Below are positions 9,121 through 49,950 of a stretch of 64,000 nucleotides of DNA, one piece after another (within the stretch, counting starts at the first letter, position 1; every line of letters begins with the position of its first letter). The stretch is from Collodictyon triciliatum (taxonomy: Eukaryota). Location: the NCBI GenBank assembly GCA_043381765.1, contig JBHJMP010000834.1:1-64000 (forward strand), in the 5' to 3' direction. The position numbers and the translations under genes are program-made. Under the pieces are notes generated by a model, which saw nothing but the letters and a program-made list of their open reading frames with translations, searched no databases and was not told the DNA's origin.

Positions 9121-11780
9121 GTGTGTATTTGTATTGTTTTGAAATAAGGATCCCCTCCCCTCCTTCTCGCTTTGCTCTACGGGTCCCCTTAAGGTCATAG
9201 GGGGCTGGGCAGCAAGCTGAAGAGGAAACAAAGCAGAAGCAAAGAAGAATGTTGCTTCGCTCAGGGCAGCCCCTTGATTCATAAATTTGTTTGGGCGAAA
9301 GCCTATCTGATTTTAACTTTGAATCGGGTTCGTCACAGAGAAAGAATGATTTGCTCATCATGGTTAAAGATTGATTTGATTATTATATAAAAATGGATCA
9401 AATCTTTAAAATCGGGGGGGCTGCAGCGGCCCATCCCCCCTCATCTTCAAGGATTAAAGACTTGGTAGAAAGGCAGAGCCGTATCATTTCTACTATTATG
9501 ATTCGGGAGCAAGTGCAGGCGTTCCAGCGTGTGACCTCCTAAGCAACTGTTAAGGGATCAGTCCCGGAAGGCGTCCACATCCTACTCCCATTATTATAGC
9601 TCTTAATAAAAAAAATAACAACCTATAATGAGCGTACCCTTTAACATTTCAAAACAAACTTTTTTTGCCGGCTTATTTATGAATGCCGGAAGAATAAATT
9701 ATAAGAGTGGTCCGATACAGCTAAAGGCCTTTGGCCGGTGCAAGAAAGGCAAAGCCGAATACATGACAGCCTGTCCTTGATTGTTGCTTAAAAAAAGGTG
9801 GGCGGATTCTGCGTTCCCTCGGGCCGGTCATTTCGACCTTGCCTGCTAAAGAGAGGGACAGAAACGGGTTCACAATGAACCACTTGCCCACTTCGCTCGC
9901 CCCCTTCCAAAAAAGCGCAGCATCGGTTAAAGATCATCATCGCCCTCCATAAAATTTATAGACCCTTTAATGTAATAAGCAACAAGATCGGGGTCCCATG
10001 TCAACGGTCGTTCGGAAGGGGTGACAAGGTTTGTTCCCCGCCCTTTGCTTAGGCGAAGTGCAAGCGTTCCAGCGTGTGACCGCCTATTGAACGGGGACCG
10101 TCAAACAACTCTCCGGCCCTCACGCGAGTCACTACGACCGCATCAGACAACTGCCCTCTGTCGACGGGGCTGAGCGAAGCGGGTCATCCATAAAAAGACT
10201 GTTTATATGCTACTTAAATATTTTAGCGATTTACAATTTTTAAAAGAAATTCATTATAAAATAAATCCTCATTATGGTGTTGTTGATGATTTATATTTAA
10301 TCAAATTAAAAGATTCAATACTAAAGGGAAGCCTTATAGTAGGAAAACCTTTTAAATCAGGGTCAAAGGTGGTGACTGAGCAAGGACGGGCGCGTAGCGC
10401 CGCTTGCCGCGTCCCTTCATTTTATTATTCTGGTCATCCTTATGATAGAATAATTTTAGAAACAATTAGGCTGATTTTAGAAAGGGACAACATCCTACAG
10501 TCCTGGGAAGCGAAGCGCAATAATTGGTCTATTATTCAAGAAATAAAACGGCGGATCGGCTCTATGGAGGAACGTCCCGCAATCTCCATCATTTGCGCTT
10601 ATGGTGTTGTCGACCGCTCCGCTTACCAGGATTACTCTTACAATGAAGGGCATTTTAAGAAAATTGATTTTAGGACGATTTTGCAAGATTATGTTAAAAG
10701 CCCATTTGATTTATATATTTTACAAAAGTGTATATTTGCATCAATAGATGCAGGTTATTGCCGGTTCAATCGTACGGGAACAACCATAGAAGGTCATATT
10801 TTATCAGAGACCTTATGTAATCTTTATTTTAAATCGTTTGTAGATGAGGCAAAACCGGGAATTCAAATTTTCAGATATTTAGATTATTGGATTGCAATAA
10901 CGAGTGACAATAATCACCTTTTTGGGACAGGTTTGCACCTTTTCCCATCCCTTCGCTTCGCTCGGTCCTCACTTCGTTACTCGCCTTGTAGGGGGGGAAC
11001 CGGTCGTTACGAATGGGTAAAACGCGCTTCGCTTCCGGATGGGCGTACGCCAAAACGCGCTTCGGCCGGAGGCCAGTCTGAGCTAACGGTTGCAGCGACC
11101 AAGAGAGAGAACGGCACCTCATTAATTGACCATTTTGGGAGGGGCAACAGTTTAATGCCCTCGCTTCGCTCGCTTTTATATTTAAAGCGTTTAATAATAA
11201 AATTCGGGCTCCGCCCTTATCCAGCACTAAAAAGCATAGAAGCAAATAAAACGGGGAAGAGTGAAACCTTGCTTTATTTTGGGGTTTATTGGACTTTCTG
11301 TTATGGTTCCCTATTTATTTCTATTCCAATAAAACCATTAATTGCTTATCTGAGCCGATTAGGTTTTTGTGATAGACAGGGACGACCGGCCCATAATGGT
11401 AAATGGGTTCATTTAGAGGTACCAGAAATAATAATTAAATATAATAGGTATCTTAACACAATTTTAGATTATTATTTAAGTCTAATCACATCAATAGATA
11501 AAAAGGATTTAAATACCATTCAGCACCTTTTTTTATATTCTTTGGCCAAGACTTTGGCGGTGAAATTTAAAACAACGATCGCTAAACTTTTTGGAAAATA
11601 TGGTAAAAATCTAGACCTCCTTCGGGGGTCAGAACGTTCGACAACCGCTACTCCAGTCCCCTTTAAATACAGCAACGACAGCCGATTTTTATATCGATCT
11701 TGTTATTTTAGGGTTAGAGAGCCAAATGTAAAGAAATTTGCATGTTTGGTTCGGGAAGAAAATATTCTTAGCAAGCGTAG
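9121..11780 (+). mobile_element. 5' fragment of cox2 group II intron: DI-DV plus 5' strand of DVI, maturase ORF in DIV
   Basis: starts GTGTG; DI basal stem TTGTTTTGAAAT / ATTTCAAAACAA; DV GAGCCAAATGTAAAGAAATTTGCATGTTTGGTTC at 11719-11752. Confidence 0.9.
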
Positions 11781-11808
11781 GGTATCACCCCGTCTATTTT
11801 GTTATTAA
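10207..11808 (+). CDS. degenerate group II intron maturase (RT remnant plus domain X, MatR-like)
   Basis: GHILSETLCNLYF, IFRYLDYWI (YADD degenerate), domain X LGFCD..GRP...EIIIKYN..IL.YY...YSLAKTLAVKFK...KYGK. Confidence 0.88.
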   Translation: MLLKYFSDLQFLKEIHYKINPHYGVVDDLYLIKLKDSILKGSLIVGKPFKSGSKVVTEQGRARSAACRVPSFYYSGHPYDRIILETIRLILERDNILQSWEAKRNNWSIIQEIKRRIGSMEERPAISIICAYGVVDRSAYQDYSYNEGHFKKIDFRTILQDYVKSPFDLYILQKCIFASIDAGYCRFNRTGTTIEGHILSETLCNLYFKSFVDEAKPGIQIFRYLDYWIAITSDNNHLFGTGLHLFPSLRFARSSLRYSPCRGGTGRYEWVKRASLPDGRTPKRASAGGQSELTVAATKRENGTSLIDHFGRGNSLMPSLRSLLYLKRLIIKFGLRPYPALKSIEANKTGKSETLLYFGVYWTFCYGSLFISIPIKPLIAYLSRLGFCDRQGRPAHNGKWVHLEVPEIIIKYNRYLNTILDYYLSLITSIDKKDLNTIQHLFLYSLAKTLAVKFKTTIAKLFGKYGKNLDLLRGSERSTTATPVPFKYSNDSRFLYRSCYFRVREPNVKKFACLVREENILSKRRVSPRLFCY

Positions 11809-11974
11809 GGAGGGCTGGGAAGCGAAGCGCAATTCCCGCCTTGATCATCGCAGCAACGGTCTTATCACTCCACACATCCCTGAAAACGACGTTTGATCCG
11901 GTCGCTAGATCCTTACAAGCCGGTCGCTACGACCTTGCTTTCGGGGGGGCGACCGGTTCAGCGGGGGGGCCAAA

Positions 11975-12048
11975 ACGCTTGTAGCTCAATTGGATAGAGT
12001 ATCAGATTTCGAATTTGAAGGTTGCGGGTTCGATTCCCTCCAAGCGTA
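11975..12048 (+). tRNA. trnR: tRNA-Arg(UCG)
   Basis: cloverleaf, anticodon TCG. Confidence 0.93.
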
Positions 12049-12223
12049 TAATGTCGGCCGTTACACGCCCCCCCCCGATCGTTGACGCGGGTGAAGCAAT
12101 AGCTTCAACAATAATGAACAGGGAAGGAAGGTGAGGTCCGTCCCCCCCATCGAAGGGGGGGCCGTAGGCCCGATACGAATGAAATGGGTGCCGCCGTCGT
12201 TACGGTCGTTCGACCTTGGTTTT

Positions 12224-13337
12224 TCACCGCCCCGGCCGGCCGGGCCCTAAATGTCCTAAAATTAATACTAAAAAAATCAAGCCGGTTACTACAACCTCTA
12301 ATGAAGCAAAAGAATGAACTGAATTAAATACACCTATTCGAATAAGCAAAGTACCAAATAAGGCCGAAATAAACGTAAAATAGGTCCCAACTAAAAAAGG
12401 GAACGGAGTCGCTTCGCTCGCCGGGGGACTGTTGTTCAAGGTCGTAGGTTCACGATGAACCACTAACCGTTGCAGCGATTTGGGGGATGTAGCCAAGGCG
12501 TGCTTCCAATTATGATAAATTAAAGTTATAAGTAACCAAGGCAATAAGGCTAGGTTTTCAACTGGATCCCAAAACCACCAACCACCCCAACCTAACTCAT
12601 AATAAGCCCACCAACTTCCTAATAATATTCCCATTGTTAAAAAAATCCAAGGAATAGAAATAAAGTCACCGAGAAGTTTAAATAACCCCCGCAAAGTAGC
12701 TTCGCTCAACCCTGGTACCCGCACTCCGCACCATTGTCGGGCACTATTCGGCGGGGCCGGAGGATGGGGGGGGAAAGCGGGGAACAGTCGTTCCCCCCTC
12801 TGTTCCCCACTCCTTGACATGGTCGCTTGTTCAACTGACCTGCACAAAATATAAATAAATATGGTCCCAACATATCCAAAATATAAAATAGGAGGATGTA
12901 TAATTAATCCAATATCCTGAAGAACGGGGTTCAACCCCGGTCCACCAAAACGGAATAATGAATAAATCGGTAAAAAAGGATTTGATGTCATTAAAATAAA
13001 TAAAATAAAATAACAAAGCATTGGTTTTGCGGTCGCTTCGACCTGGTGAAGGGGAGGTTTAACATTTCTCAATCGATTGGGACCGCGCCACCAGCGCGAA
13101 GCGCCAGTCGCATCACCTTTGTATGAGGCGGGAGTGACATTATCCTGCCCGGTAGATGGTCCCACAAGACGAGCGAAACGAAAAGGTGCAAACCTTGATC
13201 TCTGATCCAATTTTTTTGTTATTATTGAACCATAAAACATTATCACTGTTAGGAACAGGTAAATGGATCCTTCATGATTTCCCCAAATAGCCGCAATTTT
13301 ATAAAACATTGGTAAATTGGGAATTCCTAAATGTAAA
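12224..13337 (-). CDS. ccmFN: cytochrome c biogenesis CcmF N-terminal part, exon 2 (junction +/-5 nt)
   Basis: PMFYKIAAIWGNHEGS, GLNPVLQD..LIIHPP, WAYYELGWGGWWFWDPVEN, SVHSF. Confidence 0.93.
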
Positions 13338-14169
13338 TAAAGAAGGGGTTGATGCTTTCCAGCCCGATAGAACTTAGCAAGCTCTTATTAGCACTAAGCT
13401 CTTATTAGAGGGGGGACATCATTAAGGTGGGGGTAGGGTCCCCCCCTTGCTTCCACCCCTAATCCGGCCCTTGGGGCTTTGCCCTAGTCGGGCCAGTCTG
13501 ATGTATAACAAGAACCAGCTTGGCTCGCGGGGGGGAGAGGTCCTCTCCTCCCGTGTGGTTATACTTAACTCTTATTTCCTCTTCTAATAAAAGGCCTATT
13601 TTAGATTGAGCATATTGTTCAAAAAAGCAATAAAAAGGAGGGATAAAGCAACTTCTTCTTTTTCTTTTTCTTTTTCTTTTTCTTTCCTTTAATGCAAAAA
13701 CACATACTTGAAGGACGGGCGGCATGTACTCGGCTTTGCCTTTCTTGCACTTGAGGCATATAGATGAGGCATATCGATGCCGGTCCCCTAATCTTAATAG
13801 GCTTGTTGTTGGGATCAGCCGTCTGAGCTTCTGGTCCTGTTCAATGAGTCCTTCTTAGCAAGCGAAGATGTCGTTACTGTTTCACCCCGTTGCCTTGGAC
13901 AGAGAAACTCTCCGGCCGTGAAAGCTTAAGCGAGGGAAATGAGTACGTCGCGGGTAACAAGCGAAGCGGTTGTTCATTGTGAACCCAAAGGCCTTATTAT
14001 CTGGGCTTCGCCCGTTCGGTTGTTATAAGCTCGGGAGCAAGGACGGACCGCATCCCGTTTATATTATTAACAGGTTACCGTCCTGAGGAACACACGCTCC
14101 GCTGGAATGCTTGACTGCCTTCCTCCAGTTAGTTAATAATAATAAAGCTAGAAGAGTTTTAAAAGACAC
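13338..14169 (-). mobile_element. cis group II intron in ccmFN, no ORF
   Basis: starts near GTGTC; DI stem CTCTTCTA/TAGAAGAG; 32-nt DV GAGCTTAGTGCTAATAAGAGCTTGCTAAGTTC at 13401-13370. Confidence 0.8.
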
Positions 14170-14342
14170 TAAAGTTGTATAAAAAAATTTCCAGACAAAC
14201 CGCCAGAAACGATATCGGCGAAGCCTAATAAACCTAGAATAAATATATGATCAATAAAAAAATACTGTTGGTCTTTTCTTGCAGCCGGCCAAATAGCAAT
14301 AATCAACGCAATAATTAAAAGAATAGGAAGTGGTGAATTCAT
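14170..14342 (-). CDS. ccmFN: CcmFN exon 1 (not in ORF track)
   Basis: MNSPLPILLIIALIIAIW...LSGNFFIQL, hydrophobic; joins exon 2 in frame and restores the spacing to the PxFYK motif. Confidence 0.72.
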
Positions 14343-14512
14343 TTATTTTTTTATTTTATTATACTGGCCTTCGGCCTGTTTGTTTGTCCACTGCGACTAA
14401 TAAATGCAAGCAGAGGAGCAAAGGGCAGGGAACAAACCTTGTCCCCCCTCCACTCTCGCTCCACTCGCCTCTCTTAAAGGCAAGCTAAGCGTGATGACAG
14501 GTAGAACGAAGG

Positions 14513-14568
14513 AACCAACCAACCAACCAACCAACCAACCAACCAACCAACCAACCAACCAACCAACC
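14513..14568. repeat. (AACC)n microsatellite
   Basis: about 14 tandem AACC units. Confidence 0.95.
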
Positions 14569-14760
14569 CCGTTTTAAGGAACTATTTAGGACGACGTTTA
14601 CCCATTGTATATAAGAAGGGGGCTATTCAATAGGTCTGTACAATCACAACCGAGTCCCCTATAGCACTCAGGATAAACCGATGCAGCGGAGTCGCTTCGC
14701 TCTAAGGTTGGCGTCAATTCAACACAACAGCGCTTTGCTGCACAAGAGGACAGGCTCACA

Positions 14761-15359
14761 ATGATATCCTTGCTCCTTTCTAAATTTAAGGGAGGTTTCG
14801 CTTCTCTCCTCACCGGTAATGGAAAAAACTCGCAGTTGTCTAAAGGATTTTATTTTTTAGGAATTGTGTTTATCATTTTTGGTTTATCATATCTAGCAGT
14901 CCCTCTTTATAGATTATATTGTCAAATAACTGGATATGGAGGAACAATTAAACAGGGGACGTTCATTATAGGAGAAACAACAAACACGGGGGCCGCTCCC
15001 TTACCTTCAAGCGATGGGGCTATGGGGACGCAGCGGTCCAACACCGAAGAAGGGTTCAACCCCAAGGACCAAGGAGCTAACGACCGTTTTTCCGGGAGTG
15101 GAGAAACAACGGTCATGGGCCGGCCCCTTATTCGAGAGATAACAATAAGATTTAATGCTGATTTAAATGAGAACTTGCCTTGGAAATTTAGACCTGCGGC
15201 TAATGAAATAAAAGTTATTGTTGGAGAGGGAGCAGCGCCCACTTTAACTTTTTATTCTTTAACAAATTTAAGTGATCAGCCTGCAACCGGCGTTGCCACT
15301 TATAATGTAACTCCAGCTAAAGCCGCAATTTACTTTAATAAAATTCAATGTTTTTGCTT
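14761..15359 (+). CDS. cox11: cytochrome c oxidase assembly protein Cox11, exon 1
   Basis: SYLAVPLYRLYCQITGYGG, LPWKFRP, ATYNVTP, YFNKIQCFC. Confidence 0.95.
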
Positions 15360-16890
15360 AAGCGCTATTGTAGCTTAACTAATAAAAAGATGTCGTAAGC
15401 TGATCGGGCGAAGGGAAGGGAAAAGCCACCTTTTCCCTCCCACTACAGCTTAAGCGCTCTTTAACTAACTTGAGGAAAAAAGAACGTGGGAAGCGCATGC
15501 TGAACCCCAAGAAAAACAGTGGACTACCCGATGTTCGGGCGAAGGGAAAAGTTACCTTTTCCCTCCCACTTCTTGCTCTTTGCCCGTACGCTTGAACCGA
15601 TGTTCACATTTTCTCCGAACAATAGCCTGTTAAAGAGGAGCAAAGCTCTAGGAAGCGCCCTGTTTCTCAAGCGCCCTGTTTCTCAAGCGCATTTGAGGGA
15701 ATACAACCCCCAGCGCGACGACCTTAAGCGATTTTATGTTAAGGAAAAACCTCAACGTTGCACCGCCCCACCAAGGTCATAATAAGGGACAATTCGTTCG
15801 CAAGGGGAGGGAATACATGAAGACGGGCGAAGCCGTCACTTCTTTCCTTCGACTGGACGCGGCAAGGTCATAATAACGGTTACGACCTCAAGCGCCTTGA
15901 ACGGCCATATACCCGGACCACGGATAAAAGCAAAATCTTAAACAGGGGGGGCCGCTTCGAACGAGCAGCTGCGGGCATCGGTCATTGTGTCAAGCGTGAC
16001 AAAGCCCGGCCGAAGGCCTTCCTGAGCGAGGCGGGTCACGCGTAAACACGCTTTTTTTCTATGACCAGCTCCCCCTACCAACGGACGGCAGCCCGCATTT
16101 CATTCATTGGGCGAAGCCCAGGAGGTAAGGGAGCAAGGATTTAGTTCCCGTAACCCAGCAGTTTGTCATAAGGCAAGCGTTCCTTTCATAGGGGAAAACG
16201 GGGTGAGGAGCTCATTTCTCCCGCTTCGCACTGGGCCGTTCACCCCTTTTTTTTCCCGTCGCCGACTACGTAACTTAAAAATCAAATATTATTAGTTAAG
16301 AACTATAGGAAAATGGGCTAAAGGATGACGCGAAAAGGCTGTTCGCACATGTTCAAGCTGTCTGAGCTTACGACCGTTTCTGTCGTAAGGACCCTCCCTT
16401 ACGGTCATTATGTGTCATTGGAGGAAGTGACGAGCAAGACAAGCGAACCGTCCGAAGAGGTGAGGAGCTCATTCCTCCCGCTTCGCTCGAAGCAACCCTG
16501 TCGTTCGACCTAGATTTCTCCCCTTCGATTACTCCCTGTTGCTTCATTGTGAACTGGCTTTGTCTGCCAAGACTGGCAGCCGAACTTTGTTTCCTTCCAT
16601 CCCCAGGGTGAGAGAAGCGAGGGCGAGAGAAGCGAGGGCGAGAGAAGTGAGGGCGAGAGAAGCGAGGGTGAGAGAAGCGGTATCAGCCAACCACTCCAGG
16701 ACCGTCAAACAACTGCCACCTTTCCCATTTGAACGAAATAGACGCAAGGGGGGGACCCCCCGAACAAGTATTATTGGATTGGAGCAAAGCTCCGGTGGGT
16801 AATAATAACAAGAAACGCCCCCGCATCCAATTAGAGCCTGATGTTCTGAAAAGAACCAGTCCGATTCTAAGAGGTAAAAATCCCTCCTTT
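15360..16890 (+). mobile_element. cis group II intron in cox11, no ORF (junction slides +/-2 nt)
   Basis: DV GAGCCTGATGTTCTGAAAAGAACCAGTCCGATTC at 16834-16867; minimal DVI GAGG...CCTC. Confidence 0.85.
16611..16680 (+). repeat. 15-nt tandem repeat (AGAGAAGCGAGGGCG) x4-5 inside cox11 intron
   Basis: directly visible. Confidence 0.9.
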
Positions 16891-17032
16891 TGATGAGCAA
16901 CGTATTAAAGGAAATGAAACAATAGAATTATCTGTTTTATTTCAAGTTGACGCTTCTATTTTAAAAGATGAAGCTTTAAAAGACATAGATTTAATTACAT
17001 TATCCTATTCTTTTTTTGAAATTAAAGAATGA
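16891..17032 (+). CDS. cox11: Cox11 exon 2 (not in ORF track)
   Basis: (F)[20 protein letters not shown]...[12 protein letters not shown]; completes CFCF.EQ; stop overlaps cox3 start (ATGA). Confidence 0.92.
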
Positions 17033-17826
17033 ATAATATTAGACATCCGTATCATTTAGTTGAACCAAGTCCTTGGCCTATTTTAGCATCAACCGCTGGT
17101 TTATGTTTAACAATGAGTGGTGTAATGTATTTTCATGATATGGTAGGGGTGAGCCGATATCTTTTAGGTGCTTCATTCCTTTTCCTATTGTTTGTTGTTT
17201 ATAACTGGTTTTTAGATATTGTAAAAGAAGGTTCAATACAAGGATACCATACTCATACAGTACAAAAAGGTTTACGATATGGTATGATATTATTTATTGT
17301 TTCTGAAGTAATGTTTTTCTTTGCCTTCTTCTGGGCGTTTTTCCATTCTAGTTTAGCTCCAACAATTGAAATAGGGTCAGTTTGGCCACCATTAGGAATT
17401 GAAGTATTAAATCCTTGGGATATTCCATTATTAAATACTTTAATCTTATTATTAAGTGGTGTTACAGTTACTTGGGCTCATCATAGTATTGTAGCTGGCG
17501 AAAGAAAACATGCGATTGTTTCTTTAGTTTTAACTGTATCATTAGGGATTATATTTACTATTTTCCAAGCTCTTGAATATATTGAAGCAAACTTTACTAT
17601 TTCTGATTCTGTTTATGGATCAACTTTCTATATGGCTACTGGATTCCATGGTTTCCATGTAATGATTGGAACAATCTTTTTATCAGTTTGTTTATTAAGA
17701 TTATTCTATAAACATTTTACTAGACAACATCATTTTGGATTTGAAGCTGCTGCTTGGTATTGGCATTTTGTTGACGTTGTTTGGTTATTCTTATTTATTA
17801 CTATTTATTGGTGGGGTGGAAGTTAA
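17029..17826 (+). CDS. cox3: cytochrome c oxidase subunit 3
   Basis: [31 protein letters not shown]. Confidence 0.99.
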
Positions 17827-18483
17827 TCGCTGCATCGTACCCGTTTTGAACCCTGTTGTGGCTCTGCCTTAACAGGGTGGGAGGGGGTTATCGCTCCGCA
17901 CCCGAGGGGACGACGAAACGACGTCCCCTCCAACGCAGTAATGGTCTTAGCCCCCGCGCTTTCTCGGTTCATACACCTCCACCCCACCACCACACGTGGT
18001 CGTAAGCGGCTTGTTATTCATAGGCACGCGGGCAAAGCTGACGATAGCTTCGCTCCCCCCTTCCAGCTCGCCTTGTTATCCATTCCTCTCGACGGTTTTT
18101 TTTTACGATTGTTGTATTCCCCTCCGTATCATAACTATGGGAATAATTGCTCTTCGATCGACAAAGGTCTGGTCTGGTCTGGTCTGGTCTTCTTTGGGGG
18201 AAAATCGAGGGGCGAGCGAATCTACGGTTACGAATGTGGCCTTCGGCCTGTTTAACCCCCCTCCGACCCACTTTGCTTGGCGGGGAGTGGGACGGAGATT
18301 TCATCCGCCCCACGCAGCTACTTAAGTCAAGGTCATTGGGTAATCCCGGAAGCTTTACTTCCAGTCATGATGACCTTGCAGCATCGGTCCAAGCCCCTAC
18401 CCTTTACATTAGGGTAGTACCGGGCTAAACTTGTCCTTGACCTTTACCCAACTTGAGCAAGGTCGTTTATGTTAAAATTGCAT

Positions 18484-18923
18484 CTAGATGCCATTTTTTC
18501 TAATTGTAGGTACTTCTTCGAAGGTATGATATGGAGGTGGTGATGGAATTGTCCATTCTAAAGTTAATGTTTCTGGAACTGAATACCAAACATTGTCTTG
18601 AACAGGTGTTGGTTCTTGTGATAAAGCATCATAAATAATATAGCAGAATAATACTACTCCTAAAGCTGAGATCATTGAACCCCAAGAAGATAACATATTC
18701 CAAGCTAAATATCCATCAGGATAATCTGGAATTCTTCGTGGCATACCGCTTAATCCTAAGAAGTGCATTGGGAAGAAAGTTAAGTTCACCCCTACGAATG
18801 TAATCCAGAAATGTAATTGTCCTAATGTTTCATTATAATGATAACCTGTTATTTTTGTAAACCAATAATAGAAACCTGCAAAGATTCCAAATACCGCTCC
18901 TAAAGATAATACATAATGGAAGT
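18484..18923 (-). CDS. cox1: cytochrome c oxidase subunit 1, exon 4
   Basis: (H)[11 protein letters not shown]...[10 protein letters not shown]. Confidence 0.96.
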
Positions 18924-19420
18924 ATAGAGTCAATCTAATCAATCAGGTGGCGGGCGAATGAAATGGGTTCATAAGGCCTTGTCGTCACTATGAAAGGAAC
19001 GCTTGGCTTCGCCTCCTCAACCCAATTAATCAGGTGCTCTCCGAACCCAACAAGACAGTTTCCCGTCATTGGGCTCTCTTAATCAAGGGGTGGAATGAAC
19101 CCCGCGTTACGACCGCGTTCAAAGTGGGAGGGCGGACCGGCTTAAGAGAATGGAAGTATCAAAAGGCTGTCGGGGGGGGATAGAGCGAAAAGCGGACCCC
19201 GTCCTTCCCATCCTTCGGGGCCGCCTTCTGAAGGGCCGTAGGAAAGTCTCGCGGCAGGAGGAGCAAAGCGAGAAGGGGGAACGAGGAGCTAAAGACGCTT
19301 ACCTCCATTTCTCCAGGCTATTCACGGGCGGGAAGAGCCTGGGGTCATGCATTGTTCCATCACTCCCTTAGCTATGACACATTCTTCGCTCGACTCCATC
19401 GATGCTACGATCCCCTACTA
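18924..19420 (-). mobile_element. 3' part of cox1 group II intron 3 (DV, DVI); upstream limit approximate
   Basis: DV GAGCCCAATGACGGGAAACTGTCTTGTTGGGTTC (about 19076-19043), DVI with bulged A at -7, ends CTCTAT. Confidence 0.88.
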
Positions 19421-19818
19421 TATACTTTGGTCCTTTCCCCCGCTCCATCATGACCGGAAAAACAGGCAACTCACTGTCAATGAGCGACCGTGCAAAGCGT
19501 GAGTGAAGTGCATTCAACGTATATAGAATGGGGACGGTGCTTGGACCAAGGGGGATGTCGCTTCGCTCTGCGCCCCTTCCCCGCGCCCTTCCGCGTTGTA
19601 ATGAGCCACCCGAATCCCGTCCCTTTTGGTCAGGTCCCGGTTATAGTGACCTTGATTGACCCCCGGCGTTGAGCGAAGCGGGCGGAGTCGTTTCACTCTG
19701 GGCAGGGAACAAACATTGAGCGAAGCAAACAACGCGAGCGAAGCGAGGGGGGAACGAATGGGAAAGAACATGTTTTTTCCCCGCTTCATTTCGCTTATCG
19801 TTGGGAGTAAGGTATGAA

Positions 19819-19891
19819 GGCGATTCTAGCTTATACGGTAGAGCAACAGGTTGTGGTTTTGTAGGGTCGGGTTCGATTCCCGAGAGTCGCC
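19819..19891 (+). tRNA. trnH: tRNA-His(GUG), G-1 encoded
   Basis: cloverleaf, anticodon GTG. Confidence 0.93.
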
Positions 19892-22177: not shown

Positions 22178-22193
22178 TAGAGTATATAATATT

Positions 22194-22264
22194 GCGGGTA
22201 TAGATTAATGGTAAATTATCAGCCTTCCATGCTGAAGATCTGGGTTCAATTCCCAGTACCCGCT
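22194..22264 (+). tRNA. trnG: tRNA-Gly(UCC)
   Basis: cloverleaf, anticodon TCC. Confidence 0.95.
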
Positions 22265-22533
22265 AAAAGGTTAAGTACGTGTTTTCCACCAACAGAACTG
22301 AAGCAAGGAGACCAGGGTTGTTGAACCAAACATTTCGGTTAAGGCAGAGTGGGCGTACGCCCCAACCCGTTCCGCTTGATCCCCTACCGGAAACAAAGTT
22401 TCCTGTCCATTTCGGGCTTTTGTACGCCCTATTGCGCTTGCGGCGTCGTCATTGCTTCGCTTTTGGGAAAGAGCATGTTGTCGCTGGCCAAAGGCCTAAC
22501 AGAGTTTCCACTGCGACCTTGACGACCAATTTT

Positions 22534-22824
22534 CTAATAGGGCACCCCATTTGTTTTCCTCGGTCCGTTGAATATCGCTACCTTTTTTAAACCATTTCTT
22601 AAGACACGAGTGGTTACCCCACCTTTGATGCGGGCCCCATATAATTGAGATAAATAGAGCAAAGCGTCATATTTATTAAAAGAACGATCCATTAAAAAAG
22701 TTAAGCTACAATGAGATGAAGAAGGTGAGGGAACCGTTAAGAGTGGGGAATGATAGGGGGAACGACTGTTCCCCGCTTTCCCCCTAGAGCCAATTTCTTT
22801 TATTTTTATTACTTTTAAGTTCAT
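22534..22824 (-). CDS. rpl23: probable ribosomal protein L23
   Basis: LTFLMDRSFNKYDALLYLSQLYGARIK..VTTRV....KKVAIF resembles the uL23 core F.V....NK.D...Y...LY.V.V..V.T...KKA; AT-rich codons. Confidence 0.65.
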   Translation of the reverse strand: MNLKVIKIKEIGSRGKAGNSRSPYHSPLLTVPSPSSSHCSLTFLMDRSFNKYDALLYLSQLYGARIKGGVTTRVLRNGLKKVAIFNGPRKTNGVPY

Positions 22825-23299
22825 TTTTTTTTTTTTATTTACTTTAGCTGTCGTTACGACCAGGCTATGACACCGGCCAAAGGCCTTGTGTGCGTGACCT
22901 GGCTGCGGCCGAAGGCCTTGAACGACCGCATCTTCCTTCGTTTTCCCTTGCCGCTTAGTGACCCGCTTCGCTCCTCCTCCCCGCTTTTAACATAATAAAG
23001 GCCGGAGAGTTACGGTCCAGCTCGCGTTACGGTCATTGTCGCCGTAGGGCAAGTGAGCTCCCCTGCCATTCACTCACTTGCTCCTCTGGTTCATCGTGAA
23101 CCTAAGTGCAGCGGAGCGTCATGACAGCCTAAGCGTCAGGTTTGCGGGCAAGACGTGAAGCGCATTCCAGGGCTACAAAACCTCCGTCCCTGTTTATAAA
23201 CTCTGCTTAATAAAAGGCAAGGTCGAATGACCGCGGAGCGCCCTTATCGTTGTTGAAGCTATTGCTTCACCCGCTTCACTCGGGGGAAGGAACCCAAGC

Positions 23300-24770
<1,471 letters not shown>

Positions 24771-25246
24771 TACTATAAGGTCAAAGGGAAAACAAGCGTT
24801 GGGCGTACGCCAGGGAAGGGGCGCAGAGCGAAGCTACCTTTTACACCATTCACCAGTGGCCAAGGAAAATGACGGTCGCGGCCGAAGGCCAAAACGACGC
24901 GCATTCAAGCTGTCTGAGCTAAGTGACGCTTCGCTCGCTCTTTTCCACCCGGGAGGGAAGGGGTGCAGAGCGAAGCGGGTGGAAAACTCTAGATAAGTGG
25001 TGACGCTAAAATGATTCATCGCTGTTCCACTCCGCGTGTGAACCCGACGCCAACAAACAAACTGCTGGGGTCGAGGAGCTTGGATCAATACATGACCGGC
25101 GAACAGGTTTTTCGCGTCGTCATTGGAGGGGGAACATCGGGCTTCGCCCAGTGGTCCGGATCTAACCGCTTCGCTTGAAGCGGGGCCCTGTCCATTCGTT
25201 CCCCCCTCGCGTTGTTTGCTTCGCTCGATGTTTGTTCCCTTCGCGC

Positions 25247-26077
25247 CTACGATTTGGATTGCGTATAGGCGTCAGCCATAGCAACAAGGCGTGGTCGCTT
25301 TCTAGTTTTATAACCTTTAGTTGGTTTCCCCCAAGGCGTTACTGATGGTCTACCTTTTGATTTACCTTCTCCACCACCATGTGGATGGTCAATCGGATTC
25401 ATTGCAACCCCTCTAACAATTGGTCGTCTTCCTCTCCATCTCATTTGACCTGCTTTTCTTAATAAAGTAGGGGGCCCTGCGGAACCCACACCAATAGTTG
25501 CAATATTATCTCCATTGAGCAAAGCTGTTTCACTAGAACTTAATCGAACAAGTGAAAGGGATCCGCCCAAACGACCTGATCCATGACCGATTAATATTCC
25601 TGAACAACCACCGGATCTTATTAATTGACCTCCTTTTCCTGGTTCAAGCTCGATATTAAAAATTTTAGTTCCGATTGGAATATATTTTAAAGGAGCTGAG
25701 TCACCGGTATACAGGGCGGTGTTCGGCATTGTTCTTACTGATTTTATTGTATCTCCGGGTTTTAAACCTTCTGCTGCTAAAATATAAGAGGTCTTTATTG
25801 AATTCAGTTGGTTAGGAATGGTGGTTTCCGCTTTCTCCTTTTCTTCCACAATTAAAGCTAATTTTCCTGTTCTTGATGGATCATATTGAATATCTAAAAC
25901 GGTTGCACTTAGCTCGCTTCTCTTAAAGTCTATTATTCTATATAATCGTTTATGCCCTCCTCCTCTATGAAATGCTGTAATATGACCATGACAATTACGA
26001 CCTCCGGTTGATTTTTTACCTCTAGTTAATCTTTTTATCGGGTTATAGCGCCCTATTTGATTGATTTTTGTTTCCAT
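25247..26077 (-). CDS. rpl2: ribosomal protein L2
   Basis: HRGGGHKRLYRIIDFKR, VRGVAMNPIDHPHGGGEGK. Confidence 0.98.
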   Translation of the reverse strand: METKINQIGRYNPIKRLTRGKKSTGGRNCHGHITAFHRGGGHKRLYRIIDFKRSELSATVLDIQYDPSRTGKLALIVEEKEKAETTIPNQLNSIKTSYILAAEGLKPGDTIKSVRTMPNTALYTGDSAPLKYIPIGTKIFNIELEPGKGGQLIRSGGCSGILIGHGSGRLGGSLSLVRLSSSETALLNGDNIATIGVGSAGPPTLLRKAGQMRWRGRRPIVRGVAMNPIDHPHGGGEGKSKGRPSVTPWGKPTKGYKTRKRPRLVAMADAYTQSKS

Positions 26078-26398
26078 TTAATATATCCATTATGTCCTTT
26101 TCACCCCCTCCCTCTCACTTGCACAGAGCGAAGACGGGGCGTACGCCCACTTGTCCGCTTGATGCTGAGGTCCAGCGAAAGACGCTTCGCTCAACTGTGA
26201 ACTTTTAATGCTTTGTTTATGAAAAACGGACTGGTATGTGTTTTGATCCCAAAACAAGGAAAGCTTGCTTCCACATCCCGGTCCCAGACCTTGAAGCTAC
26301 ATAGTGGCCGGGGTGAAGGGAAGGGGAGCAAGGACCAAGCTGTCTGAGCTAACGACAGCATTGCTCCAAGCTCCTTGCCCGGTCGTTCGACCTTGCAT

Positions 26399-26472
26399 TA
26401 CGGGTAGAGGGACTTGAACCCTCAAAATTTGGAACCTAAGTCCAAAACGTCTACCAATTTCATCATACCCGT
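26399..26472 (-). tRNA. trnL: tRNA-Leu(UAG) with short variable loop
   Basis: AATTGGTAGAC D-loop, TTGGA-CTTAGGT-TCCAA, 5-nt variable region. Confidence 0.88.
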
Positions 26473-26474
26473 TA

Positions 26475-26547
26475 TAGGCAATAACAGACTTGAACTGCTA
26501 ACCTTCTCGGTGTAAACGAGTTGCTCTACCAATTGAGCTAATTGCCC
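26475..26547 (-). tRNA. trnV: tRNA-Val(UAC)
   Basis: cloverleaf, anticodon TAC. Confidence 0.95.
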
Positions 26548-27163
26548 TTTTTTTTTTCGCTTTCATACACACACGGAGCGTTGTTCTCTCTGCTCAATGG
26601 AAACTTGTCGAGCGAAGAATGGGGTTCACTATGAACCAGCTGCTGCCCGAAGGAAAGAAGAGACGGCTTCGCTCTACGGCCCCCGGAACGACTGTTTCCC
26701 ACTCTCCGCTCCGTAACGACCGTTTGACAGCAACGAAGGGTTCGGGCCTAATGTACACTCATCCTGCCTACAATGTGGGCAATGTTTGGGCCGTAGACCC
26801 GGACCAGTTGTTGATTCCCCGTCGAACTCCCGTCATGAACCTTTATTCCCCACCTTGCATGTAGGTAAAAACTCTCCGGGGTCAAGGTTGTCGGTTCATT
26901 GTGAACTGGCTTTGCCTTCGAAAGACGGGGTCAAGGTTGTCGCTCGACAGCCAATCGTTCCCCCACCTTGACCCCAGCGAACACCCGCGTCAACGACCGG
27001 TGCAATGCGCTTGAGGGGTCAGGCTACGGGCGGCTGCTGCGGCCCACCCAAAGGCCTTCACGAGCGAAAGAAAGAGCGAAAAACGAGCTCGGAGAGGGTC
27101 CGGCGAACAATATTTGTTCCCTACTCAGAGTGAAACGACTCCGCTCCGCTCCGCTCCGGCTTT

Positions 27164-27493
27164 TTAAAAAATCGATATACGGCTAAGGTTACCTCCTAAT
27201 AGTAGATGCTTTAATTTTTGGGTAAGGATAAACGTCTGCGCTTGTTTTGCAGGCAGCTGCTGCCAAACTATTCGGAATCTTAATAAGAGATAATTATTAG
27301 CTTTTATTCGAGAAAATCTTATTCTTTGATGGATCAATATTATACAATGTGGATATTCATCTCGTAATTTATGAAACTGAATTAAAAGACTAATTAGGGA
27401 AGCACCGGGCTTCGGGGGGGGATTATTAATTTTTCCGGTACGCGATGCAAGGTCGTTACGGGGGGCCCCTTCTTTAATTAATAATTCGTACAT
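27164..27493 (-). CDS. unidentified basic ORF109, downstream of atp9
   Basis: ATG start, AT-rich codons like the true genes, GC-rich insert near the N-terminus. Confidence 0.5.
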   Translation of the reverse strand: MYELLIKEGAPRNDLASRTGKINNPPPKPGASLISLLIQFHKLRDEYPHCIILIHQRIRFSRIKANNYLLLRFRIVWQQLPAKQAQTFILTQKLKHLLLGGNLSRISIF

Positions 27494-27633
27494 GTCGCGG
27501 TTTTTCTCTAAGGGGGGGGAAAGACGCTACGCTTCAAGCAAGGGAAAAGGCGGTCGTAACGACCTCCTAACTTGGATCCTTCAGGGGGGTAAAAGGGGCT
27601 GACCCATCACCCCCCCAGTGGCTCGGCTGCGCC

Positions 27634-27924
<291 letters not shown>

Positions 27925-28046
27925 CTATATTTTATATACCCTTAATGCAAGGTCGAACGGCCGGGGGAGGAGAGAAGCGAAACTGGAAAACGGTCGTTTT
28001 CTTCTTTGCTCCTCTGCTTTTCGCTCGCGGGGGCCAAGGTGCCCCT

Positions 28047-28793
28047 TTAACGGTAAGTCACTATTTCTTTTTTAATTTGAGCAATAACTTTAGCAGGATT
28101 TAAATGTTTAGGGCAAGTTTTAGTACAATTCATTATTGTATGACAACGATATAATTTAAATGGATCTTCTAATGCTTTTAATCTTTCTTTTTTATATTGA
28201 TCTCTACTATCTGCAATCCATCTATAAGCTTGTAATAAAATAGCTGGTCCTAAATATTTATCAGGATTCCACCAATAACTAGGGCAACTTGTTGAACAAC
28301 AAGCACAAAGGATACACTCATATAAACCATCTAATTTTTTTCTATCTTCTACAGATTGATAACGTTCTCGTAATTGTGTAGTAGAACCAGGTTCACTATG
28401 AGGAATATCCCCTTGTTCATTCGGAGAACCTATTAACCAAGGTTTAATTGAGCGATATTGATTGTAGAAATTTGTTAAATCGGTTACTAGATCTCTAATA
28501 ACATACATATGAGGTAATGGATAAATTTTACAATCCTTATCAACCGGAATTTTTTTTAAACAAGCTAAAGAATTAGTTCCATTAATATTCATGGCACAAC
28601 TACCACAAATACCTTCTCTACAAGACCGTCTAAAAGTTAATGTAGGGTCTTGTTCATTTTTTATTTTAATTAAAGCATCTAAAACCATTGGACCACATTC
28701 TTTTAAATTAATATCGTATGATTGAACTCTATAATTTGTTCCTTCGTTTTCAAGGTCATTAATGTCCCAACGATAAATATTAAATTTTACCAT
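28047..28793 (-). CDS. sdh2: succinate dehydrogenase Fe-S subunit
   Basis: [38 protein letters not shown]. Confidence 0.99.
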
Positions 28794-28889
28794 CTTTTAT
28801 TTCCTTATTTTATTATACTATACTAGCGATCAATGCAAGAAGGGGGCGGGGTACAGGGCTACGCCCAGTGGATCGGTCATTATGACCTT

Positions 28890-28962
28890 TAACGGTAGAG
28901 GGACTTGAACCCACGACGTATGGATTATGATTCCATTGTTCTACCAACTGAACTATACCGTT
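28890..28962 (-). tRNA. trnM: tRNA-Met(CAU), probably elongator
   Basis: cloverleaf, anticodon CAT, no GGG/CCC initiator anticodon stem. Confidence 0.88.
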
Positions 28963-29129
28963 ATTAACCAAAGACTAACCCACTTGTTATCGGGCTGGTT
29001 CTTGAGGTCGGACCGCCCGTGAAGCGTATGAAGCGTAGCGTCTTTTCCCCCCTTCTCGCTTTGCTCTACGTCCCCGCGCCCCCCCGCTCACCCATTTGTT
29101 AGAGGGAACGGGGACTGAACCCTCGTTTT

Positions 29130-29221
29130 TGGAAGAAAGGAGATTCGAACTCCTGAAAGGGGCTACGGCACCCTTTTACGATTTAGCAAACCGCCGCTAT
29201 AGACCACTCAGCCATTCTTCC
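29130..29221 (-). tRNA. trnS: tRNA-Ser(GCU)
   Basis: anticodon GCT, long variable arm. Confidence 0.95.
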
Positions 29222-29443
29222 CTATTGGGTGTTCCCCAGTACAACTACCTTCTCGAGAGGAAAGGAAAATGCGCTTCTTTTTATTTATAAAAGAATAAGC
29301 TGGACTATCAAGTAAGGGGAAAATGCAAGGTCCAACGGCTTTTCCCGGGACCGCGTTCGAAAGCTTGGTCCACGAACGGCACAAACAGGTTGTACAAAAT
29401 CTCGAATGCCGAAGTTGACGGGAGTGCTTATCTACTATGACCT

Positions 29444-29528
29444 TGAAGGAGGAAGGATTTGAACCTCCGTAGAAATAAATTTCGATAGATTTACAGTCTA
29501 TTGCTTTTGACCGCTCAGCCACTCCTTC
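29444..29528 (-). tRNA. trnY: tRNA-Tyr(GUA)
   Basis: anticodon GTA, long variable arm. Confidence 0.95.
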
Positions 29529-30225
29529 TAAAAAATAATGGTAAAAATAACGAGGCAAAGCCGAAAATAATTAAACCACCCAGAACCCAGACCTCTTGAT
29601 AAATGGAGAAAATTATTATTGGTATATTAAGGGGAATTAATAGAATAGGTAAGATAGAGGTCATTGTAGAAGGCTTTCCGCTACTCTGTTTTTCTATACC
29701 AGTAGCAATTTCAAGTAATATCAGTTGATTTAAGCTACTTAAAAGAAAAGTTAATGAGGGGCTGGCGGCAAGTTGGTTCATTATGAATGCGGGGAAAATA
29801 AGATTTTCCGGTTGTCCCAACAGTCGTTCCTCCCCTGGTTCATTACAATGGAGCGAAGCGGGGTGGTTCATTTCACCATCCCATTGTTCGGTGCTTTTTT
29901 CAATATTCCCATTGAGCATAATATAATCACAGATACTTAAAGGAATAATAATAAAAATGGTGTCTAACAGCAATCTGAACCCCGTTCTCAATGGTAAAGG
30001 AATAGGAATGATATCCCTCCGGTCAGTCCAACCTGACAAGGGGAAACCTCCATTTCCATTTAGCCGACTAAATAATATTGCCCAAAAACAACAAATCCAT
30101 TTTATCTGGGACCCCTCGTAGTGTAAAGAGGGGGATAATCCGGCTAGAATAACATTAAATAGAAAAAGATTACTTAAATAAAAAATAATCGTTTTTAAGG
30201 ACATTGTGACCGAACCTTTTAACAT
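29515..30225 (-). CDS. ccmB: heme exporter membrane subunit CcmB (divergent)
   Basis: hydrophobic; C-terminal ILPILLIPLNIPIIIFS matches the CcmB L...L.LPL..P..IF motif. Confidence 0.75.
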   Translation of the reverse strand: MLKGSVTMSLKTIIFYLSNLFLFNVILAGLSPSLHYEGSQIKWICCFWAILFSRLNGNGGFPLSGWTDRRDIIPIPLPLRTGFRLLLDTIFIIIPLSICDYIMLNGNIEKSTEQWDGEMNHPASLHCNEPGEERLLGQPENLIFPAFIMNQLAASPSLTFLLSSLNQLILLEIATGIEKQSSGKPSTMTSILPILLIPLNIPIIIFSIYQEVWVLGGLIIFGFASLFLPLFFRRSG

Positions 30226-30402
30226 AATAGTTATTCATTTGATACGGGCTGCGGGATGATGCAGCGGATTAACTCGCTTTACTATTATATACTGGCATTA
30301 TTTAAGCCGCTTTGCTCGATAGGCCACACTCGGCTCGACGCCGGGACCGGGAAAACGGTCGTTACGACCTTGTTCCCAGTCCCTGATACACTTTGCTTGA
30401 TC

Positions 30403-30966
30403 TCACCCCAGATCCCGTTTTTTAAGATTTGAAACTCGATCGATCGCTCTAGCTATTATTTTATTTCTTTGATGGCTATCCCCTCCTTGTTTAGATGATG
30501 GAAAGCGCCCTCTCATTAGATTTCGGGTACCAATGATAACCTCTTTTTGTATTGTAGCTAATATTGCAAATTCCTCAGCTTTAATTGATTCTAAATGTGA
30601 TGTAATTCTTGTTTGAATTTGATAAGCTGCAGCTGCTTGATTATAAGATCGGAGTAATGAAAGTGAAGCGTTCACTAATTGGAATAAATCATTAGCTGGG
30701 TCATTAGCACCACTTTTTGCTCTTTCTCTGTGATAACCTGCTAACTCAACCAATATTTTTTTTTGACGGTTTAGGCCTTCTTCGTATTGTTGTTTAATTA
30801 AATTTGCTCTAGATTCTAATTGATCGATTACTTGAGAACTTAAACTTTGTTCACCATACAGAGCGACAGCAGCAGCTGCCATTGCAACTAATAATTTTTC
30901 ATTTAAAACGATTAGGCCTTTGGCCACTGAGATAAAAATTAGATAAAAAATTAAAGCTTGCTTCAT
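30403..30966 (-). CDS. atp4: ATP synthase subunit b (Atp4)
   Basis: SVAKGLIVLNEKLLVA N-terminal motif, coiled-coil; follows atp8. Confidence 0.85.
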   Translation of the reverse strand: MKQALIFYLIFISVAKGLIVLNEKLLVAMAAAAVALYGEQSLSSQVIDQLESRANLIKQQYEEGLNRQKKILVELAGYHRERAKSGANDPANDLFQLVNASLSLLRSYNQAAAAYQIQTRITSHLESIKAEEFAILATIQKEVIIGTRNLMRGRFPSSKQGGDSHQRNKIIARAIDRVSNLKKRDLG

Positions 30967-31338
30967 TGTTATTTTTATTTATTCGGGGGCCAGCCCGGCC
31001 GGGCCGGCCCGGCCGGTGTTTTGGGTGTCACCCCTCCGACACGCGTTACGCTGGGACCGCAACTGGTCATGCCTTTTTGCGGGGAACACGGTCATGTATT
31101 GCTCCAAGCTCCTTGGTTCCCTATTGACGCAGTTGGCCTGTTCGCTGCTCTTTGTTGTCAACGAGTGGAGCGACGACTGGGGGAAGCGTGGGGAATAGAG
31201 TTTGTAACAACTCGCATGCAACTGGCTGAAGGAGTTGTCCAGGATTGCTGCTTTGTAACAACTGGTCAGAAAAAGGGGTGGAAAGGCTTCATAATGTCTG
31301 CCTTTTACACCTCCTCTTTACGAATTAACAACAGAAAG

Positions 31339-31740
31339 TCATTTTCGGATAAGTTGAATTAAACCTTTTCGGATAAGGCAAAGCCGAATCAATGTATTTA
31401 AATATGGACGACTTGATACGGAAAGCGAAGTGTCCTTGGAGTCATTGTCTGATCCGTGGCTTGGGTGACCGGGGAACGCAGCTTCCCGCGCTTCTCCTAA
31501 AATTGAATTTGCAGTCACTATGACTTTTTTTAATGAATGTGGCGATGCCTCTTGTCCATTTAATTCAATTTTAAAATCTTCGGCAATGGCGTCCAATTTT
31601 TTTAACGATTTATTTCGTAGTTTTAAGATTTTGGCTGTGTCAGTCAAATTTCTTTTAACAATAATAAAATAAAAAAGAATAAAACTTGAAATGAGCGTAG
31701 CGACTTGACTAAAATAAGTTACTTTATCTAATTGAGGCAT
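31339..31740 (-). CDS. atp8: ATP synthase subunit 8
   Basis: MPQLDKVTYFSQ...ILKLRNK. Confidence 0.95.
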   Translation of the reverse strand: MPQLDKVTYFSQVATLISSFILFYFIIVKRNLTDTAKILKLRNKSLKKLDAIAEDFKIELNGQEASPHSLKKVIVTANSILGEAREAAFPGHPSHGSDNDSKDTSLSVSSRPYLNTLIRLCLIRKGLIQLIRK

Positions 31741-32155
31741 TTAATAAATCCATATCTTATTATACAAGGCCGGAGAGTTTTTCCCGCATTTCCTAAGCTG
31801 CAAGTCAAACAACCTCTATGAATTGGTCTCAAGCGCATTTAGCTCGTGTGTGTTGATTGATGCGGGCCCGGGTAGGTATAAGCTACGGGGCATAGCCCCT
31901 TGTTCATAAGACACGGGCTCATGTAGTGGTCTCTATGACTGCGTGTGTGTGTGTTTTATAATGCGGTTGTTACGACCTCCCTTCAGCGTGTGAACCCTAC
32001 CTCATTATCGGCTTAAACACTAACACCCTATAGCTGGCCCTCCCCATTAGGGGAGGGCCAGGAATGGGACCAAGTGTTGGGCCGGAGAGTTTTCGAAGCC
32101 CGTTCGCTCCTCGATGCTGGCCGAGCAAAGCGTTTCACTATGACCTTGGACCGGC

Positions 32156-32516
32156 TTATTGAGAAATGGCCCAATTATAAAATTCTTCAAAAGGCATAGC
32201 TTTAATTTTAATAGGCATAAACCCGTGATTTACACCACATATTTCGCTACATTGACCATAGAATGTACCTGGTCGTTTGATAAATATAGATGTTTGATTT
32301 AATCTACCAGGAACAGCATCCATTTTAACACCTAATGATGGTATAGCCCAGCTATGTAAAACATCACTAGCAGTTACTAAAACTCTAATATGAGTATTTG
32401 TTGGTAATACTAAAGGATTATCTACTTCTAATAATCGAAGTTGTCCTTTTTCTAAATCATTTTCTGAGATCATATAAGAATCAAATGAAATAAAACCAAT
32501 TTCATCAGAATACTCA
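32156..32516 (-). CDS. cox2: cox2 exon 2 (trans-spliced)
   Basis: (Y)EYSD...LRLLEVDN...DVLHSW...[18 protein letters not shown]+T restores Tyr of WYWSYEYSD. Confidence 0.96.
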
Positions 32517-32545
32517 ATGAAAGTAAAATATCTTAGAAGCGCATA
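32517..32545 (-). mobile_element. 3' fragment of cox2 intron: only the branch-point strand of DVI
   Basis: TGCGCTT-CTAAG-ATATTTT-A-CTTTC-AT complementary to 11754-11779; no DV nearby. Confidence 0.85.

Positions 32546-47043: not shown

Positions 47044-49950
<2,907 letters not shown>

Follow-up and report, generated by a model that had tools for sequence, protein, structure and literature searches.

A mitochondrial cox2 intron in two pieces, with its break placed in the loop of domain VI

How is a group II intron removed from cox2 when the sequence beyond its domain V (DV) runs on towards a tRNA gene and the second exon lies 20.7 kb away on the opposite strand? This is the arrangement found in the first 64,000 nucleotides (nt), forward strand, of contig JBHJMP010000834.1 of the Collodictyon triciliatum assembly GCA_043381765.1, a stretch that we refer to as the window. 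A preliminary description of the window had proposed that the intron is split inside domain VI (DVI), so that its branch helix must form in trans. Our analysis indicates that it is very probably a bipartite, trans-spliced mitochondrial group II intron with a single break in the distal DVI loop, in which one helix acts both as the tether between the two RNAs and as the branch-site helix. The same split is present in three related lineages, one of which has proteins matching those published for Diphylleia rotans.

The two intron pieces and the helix predicted between them

The 5' piece comprises the following features.
8732-9120, plus strand: cox2 exon 1, 129 codons and the TA of a split Tyr codon, within the open reading frame (ORF) 8732-9121 (Pfam COX2_TM, E 2.3e-23)
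9121-9125, plus strand: GTGTG, the intron 5' boundary, read directly, with the same site in loci L005 and L006
9596-9603, plus strand: candidate delta nucleotide A9596 and candidate exon-binding site 1 (EBS1; TAGCTC at 9597-9602, then T9603), the complement of the 7 nt that close exon 1 (GGAGCTA, 9114-9120)
10207-11808, plus strand: intron ORF of 533 amino acids (aa) with a maturase (X) domain, reading on through DV and the DVI 5' strand
11719-11752, plus strand: intact DV, 34 nt (Rfam RF00029, 46.7 bits; gathering score 40)
11754-11779, plus strand: DVI 5' strand, 26 nt, GGAAG AAAATAT T CTTAG C AAGCGTA, beginning one base after DV
11780-11974, plus strand: putative 3' tail of the 5' precursor, up to trnR(ucg)
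11975-12048, plus strand: trnR(ucg), the downstream neighbour of the tail

The 3' piece is much shorter.
32517-32543, minus strand: DVI 3' strand, 27 nt, TGCGCTT CTAAG ATATTTT A CTTTC AT, with the 3' splice site at AT/T
32524, minus strand: predicted branch adenosine A32524, 8 nt before the 3' splice site and bulged in the co-fold
32156-32516, minus strand: cox2 exon 2 including the stop codon (Pfam COX2, E 5.8e-51)

The coordinates given in the preliminary description for exon 1, GTGTG, DV and both DVI strands all proved exact on re-reading. Exon 1 ends in ...TGGAGCTA at 9120 and its translation in ...QWYWS, while exon 2 begins TGAGTATTCT... from 32516 on the minus strand; the junction TA/T rebuilds the Tyr codon (...QWYWS-Y-EYSDE...), and exon 2 is 96% identical to the D. 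rotans-type protein P0006. The intron opens with a boundary of the group II type GUGYG, and its ORF yields PF01348 as the only Pfam family (residues 368-471, E 1.8e-18), giving the intron a maturase in domain IV (DIV); the Pfam scan of this ORF found no reverse transcriptase domain. The RF00029 match spans 11717-11802, with the DV columns at the top posterior probability. Beyond 11779 no cox2 exon was found on the 3' side, as had been claimed, and no DV was detected upstream of exon 2: the 8 Rfam matches in 32400-36000 at E<=10 include no group II element, and none of the four Intron_gpII matches in the whole window at E<=1 (11717 plus, 18924 minus, 24666 minus and 1075 plus) lies on the minus strand above 32545. 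Judged from its letters, the recognisable intron of the 3' half is limited to about 27 nt.

Between the 5' boundary and the ORF, no 6-mer except TAGCTC has its complement in the final 22 nt of exon 1. This 6-mer is kept in L005 at 955, sits in an invariant block of alignment A2, and follows an adenosine, A9596, that could pair with the opening base of exon 2; 9597-9603 is thus a candidate EBS1. The position of EBS2 is ambiguous. Conserved blocks between the window and L005 extend over domains I-III, with one hairpin covarying between the two rows of alignment A2 (CCGGC/GCCGG versus CCGAC/GTCGG). At the intron start, contigs of runs X17, X16 and X13 match the window from 9149 on and carry other GC-rich letters before it, which suggests a copy of a dispersed repeat or a polymorphic insertion.

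The pairing of the two DVI strands was claimed to extend over 24 bp, to leave one A bulged at -8 and to end in AY, and the co-fold bears this out: besides the DV hairpin it has a helix of 24 bp between the two RNAs, from which A32524 bulges at -8. The total energy is -42.2 kcal/mol, and that of the duplex -24.1 kcal/mol. The geometry is that of a 5-bp basal helix, the single bulged A and a 2-nt AU tail. The DVI signature, in which an A bulges 7-8 nt ahead of a 3' AY, is found here only as an intermolecular helix, with A32524 at -8 and a 3' AT. With its 24 bp the helix exceeds the usual length of domain VI. The Rfam alignment itself imposes a cis DVI at 11754-11802, which we rejected, as its pairs are weak G-U and A-U pairs and it ends in GU; it is further ruled out by the lack of an exon after it, by its lack of conservation in L005 and by the spliced junction described below.

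None of 2000 dinucleotide shuffles of the 3' strand reached -24.1 kcal/mol (mean -9.4, standard deviation 2.5), nor did any of 5000 random 30-mers of the window. In a duplex scan of 12,792 40-nt windows from both strands, from which the four plus-strand windows opposite the query (32501-32570) were set aside because their pairing is trivial, the site after DV ranked second. The strongest argument for the pairing is its position, since the helix starts one base after DV and stops two bases before the 3' splice site.

Spliced transcripts and continuity of the DNA

That a spliced cox2 mRNA exists was borne out by two metatranscriptomes, X11 and X17, from two studies of different years and platforms. 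Both contain a 48-nt contig that consists of 9091-9120 followed by TGAGTATTCTGATGAAAT, the first 18 nt of exon 2, hence an exact exon ligation (...GGAGCTA/TGAGTATTCTGATGAAAT) that fixes the 3' splice site at 32517/32516. The depth of this contig is 37.8 in X11 and 92.2 in X17, 4.7-9 times that of the contig leading from exon 1 into the intron (8.07 and 10.4, respectively); exon 1 contigs have depths of 34-49 in X11 and 52-85 in X17. The spliced junction was not seen in the DNA run X13, nor in run X16. RNA contigs span 9091-11966 in X11 and 9091-11890 in X17, including DV, the DVI 5' strand and the tail. The DNA run X13 reaches 12242 where the RNA contigs stop before trnR, and parts of 11899-12172 are without RNA cover, which is a weak hint that the RNA end of the 5' precursor lies near trnR.

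For the D. rotans lineage, the exact 249-aa Cox2 (P0252) is encoded by 8 contigs of at most 1,747 nt and occurs in one EukProt entry, records that fit a spliced mRNA. Trans-splicing of D. rotans cox2 was shown by RT-PCR, according to the text available to us of Kamikawa et al. 2016 (PMC4779616).

A misassembly at the end of the DVI 5' strand would explain the missing exon, and the DNA argues otherwise. A contig of X13, a run not flagged as a possible source of the window, covers 10914-12242 and so crosses 11779/11780. The metagenome contigs L002-L005 likewise run past this point, each with DV, the DVI 5' strand, a spacer, trnR(ucg) and then ccmC. L002 is identical to the window, L003 and L004 are about 92-97% identical in most aligned blocks, and L005 is D. 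rotans-like. No loose end at 11779 was present in any of the four runs examined (X11, X17, X16 and X13). The DNA arrangement is not a misassembly: the exons occupy separate loci, with the same arrangement in L002-L005 and in X13. Nor does the discontinuity lie in DIV, as DNA and the RNA contigs over 9091-11966 both run without interruption from the ORF (DIV) through DV to the DVI 5' strand. The intact DV in the 5' piece, the spliced RNA junction, this contiguity and the lack of a DV before exon 2 together support the claim that the break is inside DVI. The spacer between the DVI 5' strand and trnR is 158 nt in the window versus about 1 kb in L003 (2812-3815) and L004 (1748-2751).

A 13-nt motif is found in inverted orientation near the two break points.
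11904-11916, plus strand: GCTAGATCCTTAC, left copy of the inverted pair, an exact match
32582-32594, minus strand: right copy of this pair, lying 38 nt before the DVI 3' strand

Recombination between these copies could create a sub-stoichiometric flip isomer that supplies a cis cox2 precursor; in it, the DVI 5' strand would be followed after about 175 nt by the 3' strand and exon 2, and the intron would be a cis form with a large loop in DVI. The exact inverted pair does flank the inverted segment, and the motif has 3 matches at <=1 mismatch in place of 0.08 expected, a number reached by 0 of 100 shuffles. We nevertheless regard this explanation as highly improbable. No alternative junction or loose end near 11916 appeared in any of the four runs, bearing in mind that contigs drop rare variants, and the motif is absent from L003, L004 and L005, which all have the same split. 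An undetected isomer could hardly supply a spliced junction 4.7-9 times deeper in RNA than the unspliced contig. For D. rotans, PCR linking each split gene fragment to the protein-coding gene next to it is stated to have been run as a check on the split genes 'as assembled' (methods of Kamikawa et al., PMC4779616, in the portion available).

The motif is missing from all 86 collected loci, L003-L005 included, while L002 stops one base short of it. Because it is missing from other lineages having the same split, we rejected the 13-nt inverted repeat as the footprint of an ancestral inversion. Its third occurrence, with one mismatch, is at 468-480 (plus strand).

Relatives and the proposed mechanism

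Among the proteins searched the maturase ORF has only three close relatives. It is 73-74% identical to P0002 and P0003 in BLASTP and 78-80% in alignment A1, and the 90% cluster of P0003 includes P0264, annotated as the intron maturase of D. rotans. P0264 ends ...EPNVKKFACLVREENIFRKRD... / ...EPNVKKFACLVREENIFRKRDHRRLLDPVEK, exactly what is obtained by translating DV and the DVI 5' strand of L005, so that DV is intact in the D. rotans 5' piece as well. The protein encoded by L005 exon 1 agrees with the D. rotans Cox2 P0252 at every residue. The intron is therefore the orthologue of the D. rotans cox2 intron, with the same gene, the same insertion site (QWYWS/YEYSDE), exons on opposite strands and an ORF for a maturase only; the order of DV, 5' strand and trnR in L005 is that of the window. 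A genome contig scan with P0006 returned 80 loci at <=71% identity, none from this lineage, and scans of viral contigs gave no relatives with the maturase alignment and only one unrelated cox2, at 63%, with exon 2.

The split is older than the divergence of the window lineage from the D. rotans type, and most simply it originated in one inversion with a breakpoint in the DVI loop. The maturase ORF is 533 aa long in the window versus 430 aa in D. rotans (P0264). The extra residues form GC-rich, in-frame and stop-free blocks, and P0268, a 545-aa protein of another lineage, has different blocks in similar places. A third, more divergent full-length Cox2 (P0250, without a locus; 251 aa, ...QWYWSYEFSDEIGFV..., 8 short contigs) may belong to another relative whose cox2 is spliced or intron-less.

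DV does not vary between the window and L002-L005, and the DVI 5' strand is identical in L002-L004 and altered in its distal part in L005, where it reads GGAAG AAAATAT T TTTAG A AAACGAG ACC (distal AAACGAG versus AAGCGTA in the window). The D. rotans-type 3' strand is known only as protein, through the read-through ORFs P0006 and P0246, which have V-S-F versus Y-A-L in the window, and back-translates as TGG GTN WSN TTY YTN MGN TAY TTY ACN TTY AT. With the L005 5' strand, all helix pairs are possible for this back-translated sequence. The pair G11775-C32539 would become A-U through a forced change altering both sides (Leu CTT to Phe TTY), U11778-G32542 would become A-U if the Ser codon is TCN, one step from GCG, and C11767-G32532 would become U-G; three more forced pairs (ACC with GGT) would lengthen the D. 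rotans-type helix. The bulged A is retained there, opening a Thr codon. Both lineages have the same proximal strand (LRYFTF), and the sequence upstream of the strand is unrelated, a pattern that fits selection on the helix. The check for compensatory changes in relatives that the preliminary description suggested thus has a partial answer: the distal 5' strand does differ in L005, and the 3' strand fits as far as its protein tells. The covariation evidence is partial, since one side comes from protein.

The mechanism that we propose would run as follows. The 5' RNA would carry exon 1, the GUGUG 5' splice site, the exon-binding site, the maturase ORF in DIV, the complete DV and the DVI 5' strand, and would end in a tail of about 110-190 nt beyond that strand. 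The 3' RNA, which probably starts somewhere upstream on the minus strand, would supply only the 27-nt DVI 3' strand, with its bulged A and AU 3' end, and exon 2; both the start and the end positions of the precursors are putative. The two strands would anneal into the 24-bp helix, which presumably forms in vivo, tethering the RNAs and rebuilding the branch-site helix beside DV, and the maturase may assist in splicing. From its canonical geometry and its conservation, A32524 is the predicted nucleophile; it would attack G9121 to give a Y-shaped product, and splicing would then ligate 9120 to 32516. On balance, we lean towards a natural group II ribozyme that branches from an adenosine presented by a bimolecular helix, with a Y-branched product, conserved in at least three Diphylleia-type lineages.

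Several points weigh against this interpretation. No Rfam model matched domains I-III, even at a permissive threshold in L005; a minimum free energy fold of the L005 pre-ORF intron gave nothing diagnostic either. In the duplex scan a minus-strand site at 35720-35681 scored slightly better (-24.7) than the DVI site. It shares a GGAAGCGCAT-like repeat motif with two other sites near -23, all of which need large internal loops, and its better score arises because the distal GC-rich part of the helix resembles a dispersed repeat; we rejected it as a competing partner for its reliance on the repeated GGAAGCGCAT motif and a large internal loop. Run X16, possibly complementary DNA, contains the unspliced exon-intron contig only; its contigs bear adaptor-like loose ends, and its lack of the junction is no evidence against splicing. 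The D. rotans-type Ser may be encoded by AGY in place of TCN, and the third base of the Val codon is undefined by the protein. In the engineered Ll.LtrB intron, fragmentation of DVI was not tolerated in the experiments of Belhocine, Ritlop, Cousineau and co-workers, at least in the parts of the reports available (PMC3410883; repeated in PMC7912774). The published D. rotans text, again as far as available, names Domain V as the break (PMC4779616). Finally, no 2'-5' branch was found in any read or contig, contigs alone having been examined.

This last point is compatible with a helix that is real and serves as a tether only, the first step proceeding by hydrolysis or with another nucleophile and leaving no Y-branch at A32524. 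The closed DVI loop would be missing from the bipartite intron, so that loop contacts could not form as in cis introns, and several plant mitochondrial introns with aberrant DVI are reported to use atypical splicing pathways (PMC7912774, PMC12625411, both available in part). We consider a pure tether unlikely, given a geometry as canonical as the 5-bp basal helix, the one bulged A at -8 and the 2-nt AU tail, and given that the proximal strand, including the A, is unchanged in two lineages in which the sequence upstream is unrelated.

A different placement of the break is found in the literature. The text of Kamikawa et al. 2016 that was available to us describes the D. rotans cox2 pieces on opposite strands, calls the break site unusual and assigns it to 'Domain V'; one inconsistent sentence says 'Domain V and Domain VI' (PMC4779616). 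An intermolecular stem corresponding to DV, as the main text of that paper would have it, deserves almost no weight. A complete 34-nt DV scoring above the Rfam gathering score lies wholly within the 5' piece in the window and in L002-L005, and the translation of DV makes up the C-terminal part of the annotated D. rotans maturase. The Domain V assignment is contradicted by this intact DV, and placing the break in DVI corrects or clarifies the published assignment.

The nad3 gene bears on the inconsistent wording. A DV-like match at 1075-1155 (plus strand, 32.8 bits, below the gathering score) is followed directly by an open frame ending GALEWE (1075-1299), which resembles the C-terminal half of Nad3 and which we take to be nad3 exon 2 (about 1150-1299, plus strand). 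The arrangement at 1075-1299 agrees with a break on the 5' side of DV in a nad3 intron, which is what has been published for D. rotans. As nad3 exon 2 is preceded by its own DV-like element, the second break sentence of the D. rotans paper is in error.

Known systems and the genome setting

The preliminary description knew of no precedent for a DVI break. Trans-splicing of the orthologous D. rotans cox2 has been published, and to that extent the system is not new; no clear published account seems to exist of a natural DVI break with a branch helix formed by two molecules. Apart from the ambiguous D. rotans sentence, our literature search met no description of a natural break in domain VI; figure S5C of PMC4779616, which lay outside the search, may show the same helix.

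As in the classical trans-spliced introns (plant mitochondrial nad1, nad2 and nad5, Chlamydomonas psaA and plastid rps12), the halves of the cox2 intron would be transcribed separately and rejoined by base pairing after an origin by rearrangement. Natural breaks are placed in DIV, and in domain I in tripartite cases, in the available text of Zimmerly and Semper 2015 (PMC4424553), and the corresponding text of a 2021 Chlamydomonas review adds a domain III break for rps12 (PMC7912774). In these classical introns both halves hold substantial parts of the ribozyme, whereas in the cox2 intron DIV and DV are contiguous and the 3' half has about 27 nt. The Ll.LtrB screens amount to an in vivo test of which cut sites are tolerated; the natural cox2 cut sits in DVI, with a much extended helix.

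A likeness to the pairing of U2 small nuclear RNA (snRNA) with the branch site had also been drawn. It stands in its functional part: an intermolecular helix would present a bulged branch A, the strand bearing this A continues into the 3' splice site and the 3' exon, and the partner strand lies on the RNA with the catalytic hairpin, DV being the counterpart of the U6 internal stem-loop (PMC4424553, in the part available). It fails for a free snRNA serving many introns. Unlike the U2 system, the cox2 intron has no snRNA and no Sm site, and the pairing strand is part of the exon 1 precursor; its covalent linkage to the 5' exon and the entire ribozyme restricts it to a single intron. The 24-bp helix is also much longer than the U2-branch-site duplex.

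A conserved and expressed intron cut in the DVI loop would mean that a branch-site helix can be assembled in vivo from two RNAs, with a 3' partner that resembles the 3' end of a nuclear intron in having a branch-site strand, a short spacer and a 3' splice site. If branching is indeed bimolecular, the cox2 intron would be a living example of branch-site recognition turned intermolecular, at a site that is intolerant in engineered introns. D. rotans is in culture, which makes one step of the group II-to-spliceosome idea directly testable.

The window itself is a gene-rich mitochondrial genome with bacterial-type rRNAs and 18 tRNAs, whose protein genes include ccmC, ccmF-C, cox11, sdh2-4, tatC, nad9, nad10 and ribosomal protein genes. 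Nad1 shares 97% identity with its D. rotans counterpart (P0136, YP_009245603.1); for the maturase the value is 73-74%. The D. rotans mtDNA has 62,563 bp and 65.6% AT in the available text (PMC4779616), whereas the window alone exceeds 62,563 bp and is more GC-rich (56.9% AT), with numerous GC-rich insertions, some of them in frame; the distal DVI helix sequence differs as well. The window is accordingly assigned to a close relative of D. rotans, and not to the published genome. At least half of the sampled words of 8700-12100 were present in 20 of the 24 listed runs, which come from 16 studies, mostly of freshwater metagenomes, and the fraction was 1.00 in five of the listed runs, from four studies.

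A few minor features of the window may be added. Just 3' of the large-subunit rRNA, at 7820-7932 (plus strand), there is a weak match to 5S rRNA (25.3 bits; gathering score 38). A group I intron match at 55970-56307 (minus strand; 29.7 bits, below gathering) between two nad5 ORFs agrees with the published cis group I intron of D. rotans nad5. Downstream of rpl2, at 24666-24745 on the minus strand, there is another DV-like match (35.6 bits). The cox1 gene is in pieces, at 18484-19078 (minus) and 47082-48891 (plus). Its last exon has a 155-nt DV-DVI match (49 bits) immediately before it, and between two N-terminal pieces lies a match to a group I intron (47557-48276; 49.7 bits, gathering score 50), a layout that seems unlike the description of D. 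rotans.

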